Below, one piece after another: positions 3,702 through 24,278 of a DNA stretch of 33,400 bases. The DNA is from Promethearchaeota archaeon (lineage in GTDB: Archaea > Asgardarchaeota > Lokiarchaeia > Sigyniarchaeales > SOKP01). The DNA is taken from positions 1-33,400 of the forward strand of contig JAEOTP010000020.1 of the NCBI GenBank assembly GCA_016839765.1, read 5' to 3'. Both the position numbers and the translations under genes were made by a program. Numbering within the stretch: the stretch's first letter is position 1; every line of letters begins with the position of its first letter. The notes beneath the pieces are model-generated. The model was not told where the DNA came from. It worked only from the letters and a program-made list of their open reading frames with translations, and searched no databases.

Positions 3702-4112
3702 ATGAAAAATGGATCTTCCTATTACGAAAATATAGAGGATTTAAAATCAAAAATTGGATTTGGAATAAAGTTTTGGTTAGAATTTCAAAATGATAAACGT
3801 AAAAATATATTAGGTTCAGGATGGGCAAAATTGTTGGAAAATATTGATAATACACAAAAAAATGAAACTAAGTCTTTAACTTTAGCTGCAAAAGAATGTG
3901 GATATTCATATAAATATGCTTGGAATATTATAAAAAGGATTGAAGATAGAACAGGCATGTCTCCTGTAGAAACCAGTAAAGGAGGCCGTGGAGGTGGTGG
4001 TTGGGTTAAATTGAATGAATGGGGTAAATATCTATTAAAAACTTATCGAAATTTACTTTTTGAATTAATAGAAATTGAGAAAAAACTTGAAAAATCCTTT
4101 AAAATAGATTAA
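3702..4112 (+). CDS. modE: ModE-family winged-helix transcriptional regulator (N-terminal DNA-binding domain only)
   Basis: 'SLTLAAKECGYSYKYAWNIIKRIE...VETSKGGRGGGG...LNEWG' is the ModE wHTH signature; no TOBE/molybdate-binding domains. Confidence 0.8.
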   Translation: MKNGSSYYENIEDLKSKIGFGIKFWLEFQNDKRKNILGSGWAKLLENIDNTQKNETKSLTLAAKECGYSYKYAWNIIKRIEDRTGMSPVETSKGGRGGGGWVKLNEWGKYLLKTYRNLLFELIEIEKKLEKSFKID

Positions 4113-4777: not shown

Positions 4778-6304
4778 ATGGCAATACCCCTTTCTGGAAC
4801 ACCGGTAATTCTCGATATCGGGTCTGCCTACACCAAAATAGGCTTTGCTGGTGAACCAGGCCCGCGTTTTATCTTTCCCACAATTACTGGAACTGAGAAA
4901 TATAAAGCTGTAATGGTGGATGTGAGTGCCAGAAACATATATGTTGGTAATGATGCTGCAAAAATGCGTGGAGTTTTGAAGATCAAACGCCCTATTGAAA
5001 GGGGAGCAATAATGGATTGGAACGATTTTTATGAAATTTTAAATTATTGCTTTTATTCACTTTTAAGAATTCCTGATGTTTCTCAGTATCCTGTTTTATA
5101 TACAGAGCCCCCTTTTTTACAGAAAGAAACTAAAGAATATGTTGCACGAGTATTGTTTGAAACTCACAGAGTTAAAAGCCTTATAATGGTTCCTACGCCT
5201 ATATTGTCTATGTTTAGTGTAGGATTAACTTCAGGTTTAATTATTGAAAGTGGAGATGGTATTACTTGGATTTGCCCAATCATTAATGGGCAAATTGTTG
5301 ATCAATCAGTACAAAAGTTAACATTAGGAGGTACTGACGTTAATCAATATCTGAAAAATCTGCTAATGAGAGAAGGTATTCATATAGAATCTAGTGCAGT
5401 TGATGAGATTATAAAAGATATGAAGGAAAAGAATTGTTATTTTGTATTGGATCCAAAAAATCCTCCAAAAAAAGATGAAAGGTTTAGCATTGCTATGCCA
5501 GATGGTTCTACTATAAGTATTCCACATTATATTTTTCATGAGGCACCTGAAGTACTATTCCAACCTAATTTAGTGGGATATCCGATAAGTAATGTACCTC
5601 AAGCTATTATTACAAGTCTCCAAGGGATTGATAAATATTATTGGAGTGAACTATTATCACATGTGGTTATTTCAGGTGGTAATTTGTCATACTCTGGTTT
5701 TGAAGAAAGGTTAAGAATAGAATTAAAAAAGCTACTTCCTCAATTAGGAAAAATACCTAAACCAAAAAGACAGAGCCCTAAGACTAAAGAAAAGGCTAAA
5801 CTGAAATCTATTGAAGGTTCGAAGAAAAAGCAAGATAATTGTCCTCATTGTGGCGTCCTTTTAGATTTATCTGATGAAAAAGAATTGTGTCCTAACTGCG
5901 GTGGTAGAATTGTGCTACCAGAGCTTTCTATTAATATAAATACCTCTAGTAAAAAGGCTCCTGTCATTGATGGTAAACTCTTATGTCCTCATTGTGGAAA
6001 GGAAATAACTGATATTGACTCTCTCTTTTGTCCATATTGTGGAAAAAACGTAGAATCACCCGATTTAGAAGAGATATCGAAAAAAGTTATTGATGAACCA
6101 CCTCCAGCTAAAGAATTTGCTGGTTTTTACGAGTCCTCAGAAGAAATTCTTAAATTCTTTGTTCCTGATAATCTTCAATACGCCATTTTTAGTGGAGCAA
6201 CAATTTTAGGAACGCTTCCTTCGTTTCAAAGGTTATTTATTACCCACGAGCAATTTCTTTCTAATAGTGATCTTTTATACAAAGATATAAGTGAAATTTT
6301 TTAA
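4778..6304 (+). CDS. Divergent Asgard actin-family / actin-related protein with an inserted double zinc-ribbon region
   Basis: Actin motifs collinear throughout: phosphate-1 'LDIGSAYTKIGFAGE', 'YVGNDA..RGVL...PIERG.I.DW', phosphate-2 'ESGDG', 'MKEKNCY', 'PDG', 'PEVLFQP', adenosine 'VISGGN...GFEERL', C-terminal 'GATILGTL.SFQ..FIT..QF'. An insert with CPHC/CPNC/CPHC/CPYC lies at about 5750-6143. Confidence 0.93.
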   Translation: MAIPLSGTPVILDIGSAYTKIGFAGEPGPRFIFPTITGTEKYKAVMVDVSARNIYVGNDAAKMRGVLKIKRPIERGAIMDWNDFYEILNYCFYSLLRIPDVSQYPVLYTEPPFLQKETKEYVARVLFETHRVKSLIMVPTPILSMFSVGLTSGLIIESGDGITWICPIINGQIVDQSVQKLTLGGTDVNQYLKNLLMREGIHIESSAVDEIIKDMKEKNCYFVLDPKNPPKKDERFSIAMPDGSTISIPHYIFHEAPEVLFQPNLVGYPISNVPQAIITSLQGIDKYYWSELLSHVVISGGNLSYSGFEERLRIELKKLLPQLGKIPKPKRQSPKTKEKAKLKSIEGSKKKQDNCPHCGVLLDLSDEKELCPNCGGRIVLPELSININTSSKKAPVIDGKLLCPHCGKEITDIDSLFCPYCGKNVESPDLEEISKKVIDEPPPAKEFAGFYESSEEILKFFVPDNLQYAIFSGATILGTLPSFQRLFITHEQFLSNSDLLYKDISEIF

Positions 6305-6460: not shown

Positions 6461-7567
6461 TTGAAAAATAAACAACGTAGCTTAACAATAATAACTTTAA
6501 TGTTTACGGTATTTTTAATGTTTATTCCAGTAGTTTCAGCGAAAACAAGACAGAGCTACTTAGCAGATTTTCTTTTTCAAAACCAAATAGGAAATGAGAA
6601 ATTTGGTAATTCATATAAGGATACCTCATATGCTTTAGAAATAATTGATTATTATGATTTGTATGAAATTCAGGGATTATTTGGGCCTGAAACTAAAGTA
6701 GATAAACCAACTTTTATTGAAAATTTAGAAACAAAAGTAGAGGAAATGTTTGATGATGGAGAAATAGACTTATATGATTTATATTATTTATTAAGTTCAT
6801 TAGATATCTTAAATGGATCAGTCGCATTAGATTCAAATTACAAAGATAAGGTACATGAATATATTAATCAGACGGAGCAAATTTCTGGAGGTTATGCTAT
6901 AACTAATACATCTGCATCAGCAAATTTGGTTTCAACATATATTGTATACAATATATATACTTTATTAGATGAACCCATTTTCAATCAAACAACTCATTTA
7001 AATTGGATTTTATTGTGTAATAATACAGATGGTGGTTATGGAGGAAATCAAACATTACCTTCTACAATATTAACAACCTATTGTGCAGTATATTTAGTCA
7101 GTAAATTAACTACCGTAGATGATCTTGATAATAAAACTGCTACTTTAAATTACATACTTTCATTCTATTGTGATGATTCGCTTGATTCAGATAATTATGG
7201 AGGATTTCTGCCCGATTTAATCACAAATAATGCGCTATTAAGTAGTACTTATTACAGTATTGAATCTATAGAATTAATTGATGATTCAATATTAAATCCC
7301 GCAGCAACTATAGCCTGGGTATTATTTCGTCAAAATTTTCAAGACGGAGGATTTGTAGATGATCCTAGCGAGCATGAAGAAGGACTCTCCTCTATACCTG
7401 CAACTTTTCATGCATTTAAAATATTACATATCTTAAATGCTCTTGATAATTTAAATCAAGATATCTTTATGGTAGAATTCAATTATATAATTTTGATTAT
7501 AGTACTTTCGGTTATTGGTATAATAGCTGTAATAATTGTATTTATTTGGAGAAAAAGAAGATTATAA
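6461..7567 (+). CDS. Secreted, C-terminally membrane-anchored prenyltransferase/squalene oxidase repeat (alpha-alpha barrel) protein
   Basis: TTG start; signal peptide ending 'PVVSA'; repeats 'EQISGGYA', 'CNNTDGGYGG', 'NYGGFLP', 'RQNFQDGGFV'; C-terminal TM helix and basic tail WRKRRL; several NxS/T sequons. Confidence 0.8.
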   Translation: MKNKQRSLTIITLMFTVFLMFIPVVSAKTRQSYLADFLFQNQIGNEKFGNSYKDTSYALEIIDYYDLYEIQGLFGPETKVDKPTFIENLETKVEEMFDDGEIDLYDLYYLLSSLDILNGSVALDSNYKDKVHEYINQTEQISGGYAITNTSASANLVSTYIVYNIYTLLDEPIFNQTTHLNWILLCNNTDGGYGGNQTLPSTILTTYCAVYLVSKLTTVDDLDNKTATLNYILSFYCDDSLDSDNYGGFLPDLITNNALLSSTYYSIESIELIDDSILNPAATIAWVLFRQNFQDGGFVDDPSEHEEGLSSIPATFHAFKILHILNALDNLNQDIFMVEFNYIILIIVLSVIGIIAVIIVFIWRKRRL

Positions 7568-8651: not shown

Positions 8652-9104
8652 ATGGCTATTCTTGAAGTTGGAATAAATTTGGGAGTACGTAATCTTATTG
8701 AAATTAAATATTATTCTTCCTCAGATAATTTATTAGATCCAAACCTCAGAGCAGGATTTCTTTCCGCATTAGAATCATTTACAAATGAAGTATTTGGAGA
8801 TGACATAAATGTCGTTTCTTTAGCCTCATTTAAACTTGTATGCTATTGTGATTTAGTTGCTTTACCTAATGATCCTTCAAATAGCCAACCATTATTATCA
8901 TATGCAATTATTGAAAAAGAAACAGATGCAGAAATAGTAAAAAAACTTTTAAGCCAATTAAATTCACACTTTTTAAATAGATATTCTCTAAACGATATTT
9001 TTTCAAAAAAAGATAAATATTTTAAAATATTTGCTGATAGAATAAATGCAATTCTCGGAGATTTAAGATTAAAAACTGAAGATCGATTTAGATCGATTTT
9101 TTAA
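8652..9104 (+). CDS. Stand-alone longin-like domain protein
   Basis: Beta-beta-alpha-beta-beta-beta-alpha-alpha pattern, with 'DPNLRAGFLSALESFTNEVFG' (typical first helix of Asgard longin domains) and 'LLSQLNSHFLNRY...F..F..RINAIL'. Confidence 0.7.
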   Translation: MAILEVGINLGVRNLIEIKYYSSSDNLLDPNLRAGFLSALESFTNEVFGDDINVVSLASFKLVCYCDLVALPNDPSNSQPLLSYAIIEKETDAEIVKKLLSQLNSHFLNRYSLNDIFSKKDKYFKIFADRINAILGDLRLKTEDRFRSIF

Positions 9105-9176
9105 AAAGAAAAAGTCAAAAGTAAAATCTAATTATTTTAATACTTGATAAACATAATTCTATGGTGTTTTAGGTTT

Positions 9177-10379
9177 ATGAGTTCGAATATTGGACCAGAA
9201 GCAAAAGCGGCTTATCAAAAATATTTGGATGCTTCTACTTTGGAAGAAAAAATTAATCGCTTAGAAGAATTTATATCCCTTATTCCTAAACATAAAGCAA
9301 CTGAGAATATTGTAGCTTTAAATAAATCTCGTCTCGCAAAGTTAAAAAGAGAACAAGAAGATCAAAAGACTCGAAAAAAAGTTACAGCAAAATTAATTAG
9401 CCCCTTTTCGATTAAAAAAGAAGGTATTCAAGTTATTTTAATAAGTGATTATTACACACCTGGTGTGGGTAAAACATCATTATTAAATTTATTAACAGGG
9501 GCAGCAGAAGAAAAAATAGGTAAATTTACTCCCATACCAGAAATTGGCATTTATGAGTATAATAAAATTCGTTTTCAAATTGTTGACATGCCTTCAATAA
9601 TGAAAGGTGCGTCAACTGGAATGGGTAATGGTAAAGAAATTCTCTCACAATTACGATCCTGTGATTTATTATGTTTTTGTATAGATTTATCTCGAAATTA
9701 CGAGAACCAGATGAACATACTATTAAATGAGTTAGATTATGCTAACATTCGAATCAATTTTTCACCTCCGCCCATATCAATTGAAAAAACTGGGTCTAAT
9801 AAAGTTCAAGTTTTTTATCTTACAAGTGAAGCAAAAGACACCGAAAAATTTGAAGAATTAACGGAGAGAATAAAAGAACTGGTTAATGCGAGTGGTATGA
9901 GAAATGCTATTGTAAAAATTTATGGTGAAATAACCCTCACTGATATAGTCGATGCATTGAATCCATCTGTTGTATATAAAAAGGCAATAATTATAGGAAC
10001 TAAGGGGGATCTTCCTCAAACAGAGAAGAACTTTGAAAAATTAAAAAAATCCTATTCAAATATGTTCCCAATTATAATAGGAACGAGTGTAAAAAAAGCT
10101 GAAATGCCAGAGAACTTTGGAGAAATAATTTTAAAATTTTTAGGAAAAATTAAAATATATACTATGCATAAAGGAGTCATTGCCCAGAAACCACTGGTAA
10201 TAGATTCAGAATCTAATGTGCCACTAATTAAAGATGTTGCTTTAAAAATTCATAAAAGCTTCTATGACCAATTTGATTATGCTGTAGTTATTAGAGAATC
10301 AGATCGTCAAAAGCGTAAAAAAGTAGGTTTAGATTATGAAGTAAAAGATAATGATATTATTGAATTATTTACCAAATAG
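9177..10379 (+). CDS. DRG/RBG-family (OBG superfamily) GTPase with C-terminal TGS domain; atypical G motifs
   Basis: N-terminal 'IPKHKATE..VA....RLAKLK', 'VGKTSLLNLLTG', 'FQIVDMP', 'IKIYT', 'DVALKIH...F.YA', 'KVGLDY...DNDIIE'; ATG at 9177. Confidence 0.9.
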   Translation: MSSNIGPEAKAAYQKYLDASTLEEKINRLEEFISLIPKHKATENIVALNKSRLAKLKREQEDQKTRKKVTAKLISPFSIKKEGIQVILISDYYTPGVGKTSLLNLLTGAAEEKIGKFTPIPEIGIYEYNKIRFQIVDMPSIMKGASTGMGNGKEILSQLRSCDLLCFCIDLSRNYENQMNILLNELDYANIRINFSPPPISIEKTGSNKVQVFYLTSEAKDTEKFEELTERIKELVNASGMRNAIVKIYGEITLTDIVDALNPSVVYKKAIIIGTKGDLPQTEKNFEKLKKSYSNMFPIIIGTSVKKAEMPENFGEIILKFLGKIKIYTMHKGVIAQKPLVIDSESNVPLIKDVALKIHKSFYDQFDYAVVIRESDRQKRKKVGLDYEVKDNDIIELFTK

Positions 10380-22787: not shown

Positions 22788-24278
22788 ATGACGGATGAAC
22801 TAAGGGAAGACGAGGAAAGTAAGTCGGAAAGCAAAGTGGAAAAAGATGATGATAGAGTAGATAAGGAATTTTTAAGCAAAGCAAAAGATTCAAGAGACTT
22901 AATAGATAAAAAGTTAAGGAGTTTTGAAAATAGCATTGAAGATATTTCTGATACCATTAAGAATGGTGAAACTGAAGAGGAGCCAAGGAAAAAAGAGGAA
23001 ACTCAGATAGAAGAATTAAGTGATGAAATTAAGAGCGAACAAGAAAAACTTGATCAAATTAAGAAAAAAATTGATGATAAAGAAGATTATCTAACTGCTA
23101 TTGAAGAAACAATAAAAGCATTAGAGGATCGATACAATCGGAAAAATGAAGAAATGCAAAACTTAGATGAGAGAATAGAGATTACCACTGAGAGTAAAGA
23201 AACATTAGAAGAGGAATATAAGGAATTAATAAAGAATAATGAGCAATTAATCAAAACATATGAAGCTAGGCAGGTAGATTTAATAGTACTAACTGATAGT
23301 GTAAAAGAAAAAGTCACAACCCAAGACGATTTAAGATCAAAAATAGCTAAAATTAATCAGGAATTTCAAGAAAAAGAAGAACTCTTAGAAAAACAGAGAG
23401 AAGAAGCAGAAGCTTTAGATAAGAAAATAAAAAGCCTAACAGCAGAAAATGAGACTTTAAAAGGTTCAATTGGAAAAAATAGGTTTGAATTAGACCATAC
23501 GAATAAAGAAATTGAAGCTAAAGAGGAAGAAAAAAAACTACTATCGGAACAGTTAGAGAAAAAAGAACAGAGAATAAAAGTCATAGAGCAACATATTGAA
23601 GATTATAAAGAAGGATTTCCTGAGATGGAACAACAAAGACAAACATATGAAGAACTTTTAGCAAAATATAAAGTTCAATTAACTGAAAAACAACAACAAT
23701 TAATTGATGTTGAATCAAGGATTCAAGGTCTCAACGATAATTTAGAGTCTTTTGATGAACAAATTTCTAAAAAAGAAACTTTAATTGAAGCTAATGAGAA
23801 AAGAATAGATGATTTGAAAAAAGATATTGATATTAGCAATAAGGAATATATTGAAAGAGAGGAGCGGTTAAATTCTCTTACAGAAAAATTAGAATATATG
23901 CAAACTGAGCATGATAAACTTGTTAAGTCAAAAGATGTGATTGAAAACAGCACAAATGAATCTAAAGCATTACTTCAAAAATTAAAAATAGAATTAGAGA
24001 ATCAAGAAGAAGAAATAAGAGATAAAGAAAGTAGAATTCATAGATTAGAGACTTTATCATTCATCTATAGACTTTCAAAATTCTTTGGTGGGATATTAAT
24101 TGGTGTAGGGATTTTCTTTATTATTCTTGTGATAGGTGATATGTTTAATTTTATCAATTTTGGAGACGTTCAGATTATAAATTTTGGTGAGTTCAGTTTG
24201 GGGGTTCTAAGTTTATTATTATTGATAAGCGCTATATTTTCAATTATTTCTGGAATATTTCACCTCGAGAAATCTTAA
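22788..24278 (+). CDS. Long coiled-coil protein with two C-terminal transmembrane helices
   Basis: About 420 aa of E/K/Q-rich heptad-patterned sequence with no ATPase motifs, followed by two hydrophobic segments ('FFGGILIGVGIFFIILVI', 'LGVLSLLLLISAIFSIISGIF'). Confidence 0.85.
   Translation: MTDELREDEESKSESKVEKDDDRVDKEFLSKAKDSRDLIDKKLRSFENSIEDISDTIKNGETEEEPRKKEETQIEELSDEIKSEQEKLDQIKKKIDDKEDYLTAIEETIKALEDRYNRKNEEMQNLDERIEITTESKETLEEEYKELIKNNEQLIKTYEARQVDLIVLTDSVKEKVTTQDDLRSKIAKINQEFQEKEELLEKQREEAEALDKKIKSLTAENETLKGSIGKNRFELDHTNKEIEAKEEEKKLLSEQLEKKEQRIKVIEQHIEDYKEGFPEMEQQRQTYEELLAKYKVQLTEKQQQLIDVESRIQGLNDNLESFDEQISKKETLIEANEKRIDDLKKDIDISNKEYIEREERLNSLTEKLEYMQTEHDKLVKSKDVIENSTNESKALLQKLKIELENQEEEIRDKESRIHRLETLSFIYRLSKFFGGILIGVGIFFIILVIGDMFNFINFGDVQIINFGEFSLGVLSLLLLISAIFSIISGIFHLEKS

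Follow-up and report, generated by a model that had tools for sequence, protein, structure and literature searches.

A family of lokiarchaeal actin-related proteins with zinc ribbons inserted in the actin fold and unequally conserved filament faces

Known actins and actin-related proteins

Along the actin filament a subunit touches its neighbour with its D-loop and subdomain 4, which meet the neighbour's subdomain 3 and subdomain 1/3 groove. Arp11 terminates the Arp1 filament, capping its pointed end, and is without subdomain 2; Arp2 and Arp3 carry short inserts in the 322-327 loop and still accept actin; and the nuclear actin-related proteins (ARPs) are non-polymerising, hydrolysis-poor actin folds with large loop inserts, in which no zinc-ribbon insert is known. 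Lokiactin spans the Asgard lineages, has no insert, and keeps Q137, D154, H161, H73 and its barbed face in 100% or nearly all of its sequences. A paper of 2020 described Asgard ARPs as having no known functions (PMC7444086), and in work on motility from 2026 the main regulators named for Lokiactin are gelsolins and profilins (PMC13716822).

The gene considered here lies in a window of 33,400 nucleotides from a Promethearchaeota archaeon (contig JAEOTP010000020.1) and encodes what is called below the zinc-ribbon ARP (Table 1). Its orthologue in Ca. Lokiarchaeum ossiferum, recognised by the same clade, the same gene neighbours and an exact sequence look-up, is UYP44711.1 (NEF87_000996), one of the three 'ARPs' of Rodrigues-Oliveira et al. 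(PMC9834061), and both published qPCR primers map into it. That paper gives its position in a tree and a transcription lower than that of Lokiactin, and the main text mentions neither zinc nor a function for it (PMC9834061). The sequence-only reading of the window had regarded the protein as the best candidate for an undescribed system, which slightly overstates the case, since this member already figures in the actin tree and RT-qPCR; it is the insert and the function that are undescribed there. Our search, in which coverage of key papers was incomplete, found no paper describing the insert, and none joining Asgard, actin-related and zinc ribbon.

UYP44711.1 differs from the window protein in having one ribbon rather than two and acidic linkers, with about 38% identity between them. 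The orthologue in Promethearchaeum syntrophicum MK-D1 (QEE17409.1 / WP_147664301.1) has two ribbons at the same site, the same downstream gene and a longer insert of about 178 aa, and is annotated merely as a 'zinc ribbon domain-containing protein'. With Lokiactin the zinc-ribbon ARP shares the actin fold, about 36% core identity, the pocket glycines and lysines and a Lokiactin-type D-loop. Its best PDB match is the Asgard 'HC1 actin' (9wc4), and its best eukaryotic sequence matches are actin and Arp1 (centractin), at 222-227 bits; Arp2 and Arp3 are absent from the top 60 PDB sequence matches.

Table 1. Features of the zinc-ribbon ARP gene and related genes, in window coordinates except for the last row
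Feature	Position	Strand	Remark
Zinc-ribbon ARP, whole gene P0001	4778..6304	+	508 aa, uninterrupted ORF
Actin fold, residues 1-323 (actin equivalent up to about P322/S323)	4778..5746	+	
Phosphate-1 loop, residues 13-20	4814..4837	+	D11, G13, K18 equivalents invariant
D-loop (residues 40-55; M44 equivalent M46) and MRGV motif (R62 equivalent)	4895..4975	+	Conserved pointed face
Degenerate hydrolysis site: Q137->T140, D154->E157, H161->W164	5195..5269	+	
Insert base (conserved G324, P327) and linker 1, predicted disordered	5747..5839	+	
Zinc ribbon 1: C355/C358/C371/C374	5840..5899	+	In every family member examined
Zinc ribbon 2: C403/C406/C418/C421	5984..6040	+	Missing from basal subclade and L. 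ossiferum
Acidic linker 3; conserved E446-F447 close to insert end	6041..6145	+	
C-terminal actin segment (about actin 328-375)	6146..6304	+	
Surface protein gene, conserved downstream partner	6461..7567	+	Signal peptide, C-terminal membrane helix, short basic tail
ModE-like winged-helix gene	3702..4112	+	CBS gene lies between it and ARP here
Lokiactin-like genes of the window's genome	L001 and L002		

Architecture of the gene and its insert

The initial description of an actin-family protein with an insert of ~130 aa at 5750-6143, corresponding to residues 325-456 of the open reading frame at 4778-6304, was confirmed by Pfam, by PDB alignments and by mapping onto P322. The Pfam Actin family matches residues 8-325 (E 3e-66, 224 bits against a cut-off of 27). 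In a sequence search, alignments to PDB actins cover residues 4-326 and restart at about 458, so that the C-terminal actin segment resumes past the insert, and alignment to full eukaryotic actin places the start of the insert immediately after the P322-equivalent residue. The four-subdomain fold is borne out by VIA-align to actin (Z 35.9, rmsd 2.7, 330 aligned), with Z 35.6 for an Arp3 chain, and by a Foldseek TM by target of about 0.82.

Within the insert, zinc-ribbon and DZR families of Pfam match residues 355-424, and Cys4 ribbon matches stand above cut-off for PF13248 (40.2 bits), PF13240 (31.8) and PF12773 (30.5). Each ribbon has the two CxxC knuckles of a Cys4 zinc ribbon, 10-12 residues apart, and the eight cysteines are invariant in 121 of 121 close sequences; from these invariant cysteines the bound metal would be zinc, or possibly another metal. 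The double ribbon seen in the sequence-only reading thus holds for the window protein, but the family as a whole has one ribbon or two, in inserts of about 100-180 aa. The Lys/Pro-rich and acidic linkers of that reading fared similarly: linker 1 is indeed basic in the window, but its charge is unconserved, the net value running from +10 to -8 across the family and being acidic in the cultured strains. In the AlphaFold model the actin core is modelled, with low confidence in subdomain 2; pLDDT is about 60-68 in the ribbons and mostly below 50 in the three linkers, so the tethers look flexible. The idea of a flexible Zn-ribbon module is accordingly backed by model and conservation together.

That reading had also named an assembly chimera, with an insert unique to this assembly, as one condition under which it would fail. 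The gene is present in more than 120 independent assemblies and in two closed genomes of cultured strains, and L. ossiferum RNA contigs span the orthologue, insert included, with no mismatch and no joint. The independent assemblies, closed genomes and joint-free RNA contigs rule out a chimera, an intron or a frameshift.

The type of ribbon is a mobile module, and 22 ORFs of the window's genome bear a closely similar motif, often at the C terminus. The small archaeal ribbons of Pfam DZR and zinc_ribbon_2/3 belong to the same broad Cys4 class, but are terminal rather than inside an actin fold. An automatic cluster of the ESM Atlas gathers 79 archaeal proteins that share the Actin and DZR families; a feature search of the Atlas with the insert gave no usable match, and a PDB sequence search with it returned chance-level ribbons only (E >= 0.04). 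Haloarchaeal CdpC has a ribbon that binds FtsZ1 (10.64898/2026.07.16.738847), its likeness to the present ribbons being at the level of the broad Cys4 class only, and the Loki 2DGel gelsolins bear a tethered C-terminal Zn domain (PMC9433394). Ribbons on archaeal cytoskeletal proteins therefore have precedent. The two-domain gelsolin of the window's genome (L063, G000:C51) ends, as in Loki 2DGel, in a linker and Cys4 domain, whose inner spacer is much longer than that of the zinc-ribbon ARP ribbons.

Distribution and phylogeny

In a survey of 400 Asgard genomes, which scored three candidates per genome, orthologues were found in 145 of the 154 genomes of the window's Lokiarchaeia order (a count that takes in two fragments recovered by hand), an order that includes both cultured species. 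None was found in the 246 other genomes, 7 from other Lokiarchaeia orders and 239 from other classes, where the best match stood at the level of Lokiactin; the family is thus confined to one order, unlike Lokiactin. The best 120 homologues mostly have the same length and domain set. Some matches carry NCBI labels of Hodarchaeota, Thorarchaeota, Odinarchaeota or Heimdallarchaeota, at odds with the GTDB survey, and these are probably mislabelled bins. Among the best 150 of 1.84 billion representatives there was neither an insert-free member of the clade nor an actin from outside the family with ribbons at this site.

The proposal of a distinct Asgard actin subfamily was upheld by phylogeny. With the insert removed from the alignment, the zinc-ribbon ARPs form one clade (100/100) outside the grouping of Lokiactin with eukaryotic actin and Arp1, and a joint clade with Lokiactin is rejected (p-AU 0.016 under LG+G4). 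These statements refer to a quick tree and a careful 36-row tree, both midpoint-drawn and made without named Arp2-10 and crenactin. Within the actin family the protein belongs with the lokiarchaeal ARPs of the UYP44711.1 lineage and not with Lokiactin. The deepest split in the family sets apart a one-ribbon subclade, most other members having two ribbons and the L. ossiferum genus one, a pattern that suggests that one ribbon was gained and then duplicated, with a later loss. Of the five actin-family genes in the window's genome, two are Lokiactin-like, one encodes the zinc-ribbon ARP and two encode other ARPs.

The nucleotide site

The phosphate-1, phosphate-2 and adenosine motifs are all recognisable. 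Across 28 diverse members no change is seen at D11, G13, K18, G156, G158, E214, G301 or G302; S14 and D157 vary, the S14 equivalent becoming E or Q in distant members. Given the invariant pocket glycines, D11, K18 and E214, the protein is likely to bind nucleotide. The catalytic positions have fared differently: Q137 is replaced by S, T or A in every zinc-ribbon ARP, E usually stands in for D154, 4 of 27 members retain H161, and R takes the place of H73 throughout. In actin, Q137 positions the attacking water, which D154 and H161 activate; hydrolysis is slower in Q137A and lost in the triple mutant (PMC9646518). In view of these roles, ATP hydrolysis is probably weak, which is not to imply that it is absent.

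Filament faces and a second ARP

Conservation of the filament faces was assessed as identity to the Lokiactin consensus. Over site sets that were written from F-actin knowledge before the data were seen, not computed from a structure, and whose sites are not independent, 27 diverse members gave 0.51 for the pointed face and 0.28 for the barbed face, against 0.37 overall (p 0.017). The excess of pointed over barbed identity relative to other actin-fold rows had p 0.0014. The asymmetry was likewise found without the sites beside the insert (p 0.031), on a fresh alignment (p 0.029) and with a slightly trimmed site set (0.56 pointed, 0.31 barbed), whereas other ARPs and divergent actins were unbiased (0.35 against 0.38). 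The PDG loop of subdomain 4 is intact and M44 and R62 are retained in all 27 members; the contact partners of these two residues, Y169 and D288, are lost, as is R290. With these losses and a barbed identity of 0.28, the conserved barbed face of the Arp2/Arp3 type is not found. Within the family the barbed face is conserved at 0.58, by family-specific residues. For the lateral (short-pitch) face, conservation is poor, at about 0.3.

A second order-restricted ARP, the UYP44126.1 type, turned up in the order's two largest families; the search did not find it in the rest of the class, nor in the four genomes of the basal family, which are 63-88% complete. In 23 sequences it shows the mirror image at key contacts: M44 and R62 are lost and Y143, Y166, Y169, D286, D288 and R290 are kept at 91-100%. 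Its lateral face is weak too. Over the whole site set its face test gives p 0.39, and the contrast p 0.067, which is not significant. By its residues it is a candidate nucleator or pointed-end capper.

The UYP44126.1-type gene of the window's genome lies at L003:3700-4815 (G000:C53), with others in L033, L031 and L067-L086; the catalytic residues are lost and H161 is always R. Two genes upstream of it in the window's genome, at L003:2050-2739, is a coiled-coil polyproline protein with a WH2/VASP-like tail and no Pfam match, and in L. ossiferum and MK-D1 (L033, L031) a small GTPase gene lies directly upstream instead.

Neighbouring genes

In 16 of 20 distant loci, and in a further two that are fragmentary, the surface protein gene directly follows the ARP, and a comparison of hit tables shows it co-oriented and within about 2.3 kb wherever both share a contig. 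The two proteins have nearly matching distributions; the ARP stands without this neighbour in three genomes of one genus and in one basal genome. The surface protein is a prenyltransferase-type alpha/alpha toroid with 7 N-glycosylation sequons. The ModE-like winged-helix gene is upstream in 13 of the 20 loci and folD lies downstream in 11; since these too are conserved nearby, gene-order inertia may explain the pairing of ARP and surface gene. Of four L. ossiferum RNA runs, all from one study, two yield a contig that spans both genes and ends before folD, a weak hint that they form an operon; no genes were ranked by contig depth.

In L. ossiferum the uncharacterised orthologue of the surface protein ranks within the top 75 proteins by abundance; it is a candidate part of the unexplained surface structures of these cells. 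In another order (L059/L060; G126, G127), with no ARP nearby, a ubiquitin-E1-like gene and a gene whose C-terminal RING-like domain was read from the sequence by eye are directly followed by a distant relative of the surface gene.

Further along the window, 8652-9104 is by eye a longin-like gene, with no Pfam match, and 9144-10379 encodes a DRG-like GTPase with a TGS domain and a phosphate loop that looks atypical. Both were considered as parts of a module with the ARP and rejected, as they are neighbours in just 1 of 20 distant loci. At 22788-24278 there is a 496-aa long coiled-coil protein with C-terminal membrane helices, its match to crescentin rods being far below cut-off.

Proteomics of L. 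ossiferum

The locus was mapped onto the L. ossiferum proteomics of 10.1101/2025.11.30.690169. GNAMCCOK_01003 and GNAMCCOK_01004 match folD and the surface protein by mass, which by gene order makes GNAMCCOK_01005 the ARP. It was detected in 16 of 16 proteomes, with a value of 16.1; Lokiactin stands at 21.7 and the surface protein at 21.5. These values carry no units in the part of the data set covered; if the scale is log2, the ARP is about 50-fold below Lokiactin. Low abundance relative to Lokiactin fits an end-binder. Ranked by abundance, the surface protein is the 73rd row of the proteome and Lokiactin the 59th.

In the Lokiactin co-immunoprecipitation, GNAMCCOK_01005 has no row among the ratios above -1.06, the table holding 841 further rows beyond this scope. 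This absence is the main evidence against stable filament binding by the zinc-ribbon ARP. The experiment used cleared lysate of stationary cells and, according to its authors, under-represents membrane-associated proteins (10.1101/2025.11.30.690169).

A possible role and its alternatives

The reading that we prefer, at a probability of roughly 40%, is that the zinc-ribbon ARP is a non-polymerising terminal subunit that docks on a barbed face and uses its ribbons as binding handles. Architecture, conservation, residue pattern and the expression of the L. ossiferum orthologue are observations; we infer its binding and capping, as well as its zinc and nucleotide chemistry, as follows. The protein would be of low abundance, probably nucleotide-binding and hydrolysis-poor, and would not elongate filaments. 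Its pointed face (D-loop, MRGV and PDG loop) would dock on the barbed face of another actin-fold subunit, either at the end of a Lokiactin filament or on a UYP44126.1-type ARP, in which the complementary barbed face is retained. The zinc-ribbon ARP's own barbed face, its acceptor residues lost and an insert of 100-180 aa leaving from the 322-327 loop, would take no further subunit, making the protein terminal. One or two ribbons on disordered tethers would then bind a protein partner, possibly near the membrane. The end-capped mini-filament of dynactin offers a functional analogy, but the polarity is opposite, Arp11 being a pointed-end cap and the zinc-ribbon ARP being proposed for the barbed end.

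In favour of a terminal subunit are the contrast between the two faces and its mirror image at key contacts of the second ARP, the replacement of Q137 in every member, the low abundance of the L. ossiferum orthologue, and the location of the insert just past P322, a site altered in K291E/P322K, a barbed-end, long-pitch interface mutant that impairs polymerisation (10.1101/715383). Against it, the ARP is unlisted among enriched proteins in the part of the co-immunoprecipitation table covered; the face sets were drawn up from general knowledge of F-actin with interdependent sites, and over the whole set the mirror pattern of the second ARP is not significant; that ARP was not found in the basal-family genomes; Arp2 and Arp3 tolerate short inserts at this position and still accept actin; lateral-face conservation is poor; and subdomain 2 is poorly modelled. 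The filament capper suggested by the sequence-only reading therefore drew support from sequence, in the retained pointed and lost barbed face, and none from in vivo data. The same residues speak against the nucleator that it also suggested, an Arp2/3-like protein templating a new filament from its own barbed face: the Arp3 chain ties with actin structurally and Arp2 and Arp3 have inserts in the same loop, but a nucleator would need the very face that has decayed, the nucleator-type pattern sits in the second ARP instead, and we hold this role to be very improbable. That the protein forms its own filament, or sits sparsely in Lokiactin filaments with the insert projecting sideways, is an unlikely reading, though not as remote as nucleation. 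The full-length D-loop, the intact PDG loop and the within-family conservation of the barbed face would suit it, yet in a homopolymer both faces should drift together and here only the barbed one did, while the loss of the M44 pocket and of D288, the partner of R62, the decayed lateral face and the low abundance tell against either form.

A doubtful, yet real, contender is a filament-independent scaffold like the nuclear ARPs, a non-hydrolysing actin fold within a small complex, whose ribbons would bind protein, parts of the ubiquitin system or nucleic acid. The loss of hydrolysis residues, the decay of the lateral filament face, the absence of the ARP from the enriched proteins in the covered part of the co-immunoprecipitation table and the upstream winged-helix gene all accord with it, as does the structural match to nuclear ARPs (Arp4, Arp5, Arp8 and Arp7/9, Z 24-33), among which the chains of Arp4 and others reach Z 30-33. 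Actin and Arp3, however, outscore these chains, and the D-loop and MRGV motif remain specifically Lokiactin-like. The changing charge of linker 1 speaks against a conserved nucleic-acid role and weakens the nucleic-acid adaptor that had been put forward. It is also unlikely, on our estimate, that the ARP links the basic cytoplasmic tail of the surface glycoprotein, or that protein's trafficking, to the cytoskeleton, a reading compatible with the terminal subunit. Gene order, the shared RNA contigs and a surface protein close to Lokiactin in abundance rank favour such a link; on the other side stand the possible inertia indicated by folD and the four genomes without this neighbour, an about 40-fold difference in abundance between the two proteins, a cytoplasmic tail of just a few residues, and a surface protein that is unenriched in the Lokiactin co-immunoprecipitation (ratio -0.02). 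Slightly less probable still is a combined arrangement in which two ARPs would close both ends of a Lokiactin mini-filament, the UYP44126.1 type at the pointed and the zinc-ribbon ARP at the barbed end, or would form a closed ARP dimer, with the ribbons tying the unit to the surface glycoprotein. If true, this two-ARP unit would be a dynactin-like assembly evolved independently in archaea, in which an actin paralogue does the work of capping protein.

The terminal-subunit reading yields a concrete, polarity-specific prediction for an ARP that L. ossiferum expresses and the MK-D1 genome encodes. If the protein does end filaments, specialised actin paralogues had already arisen in archaea as filament-end factors and tethers, in parallel to Arp1/Arp11 and Arp2/3. 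A family confined to one order bears on the cell biology of Lokiarchaea and on the origin of ARPs, not on the direct ancestry of a eukaryotic protein.

Other actin-like genes

Several other actin-like genes came to light in these genomes. In another Lokiarchaeia order, L043:1-3174 (-) (G128:C2) is an alpha-2-macroglobulin-like ORF with A2M_BRD, A2M and TED domains. Between its bait-region and A2M domains it contains two Lokiactin-like stretches, an N-terminal piece (residues about 500-558, Pfam Actin at cut-off) and a C-terminal motif, and a truncated actin gene lies about 4 kb away; the actin pieces may be a bait that mimics actin, or else an artefact of assembly. In other Lokiarchaeia orders, the ARPs at L054:202-2631, L055:70-2628 and L037:445-2154 have long C-terminal extensions without ribbons, comprising a possible winged-helix segment and low-complexity tails. 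In the window's genome the second Lokiactin-like gene, at L002:3935-6345 (G000:C64), has its catalytic residues intact, and the gene after it encodes a protein of 401 aa that includes a TrmB-type DNA-binding segment.
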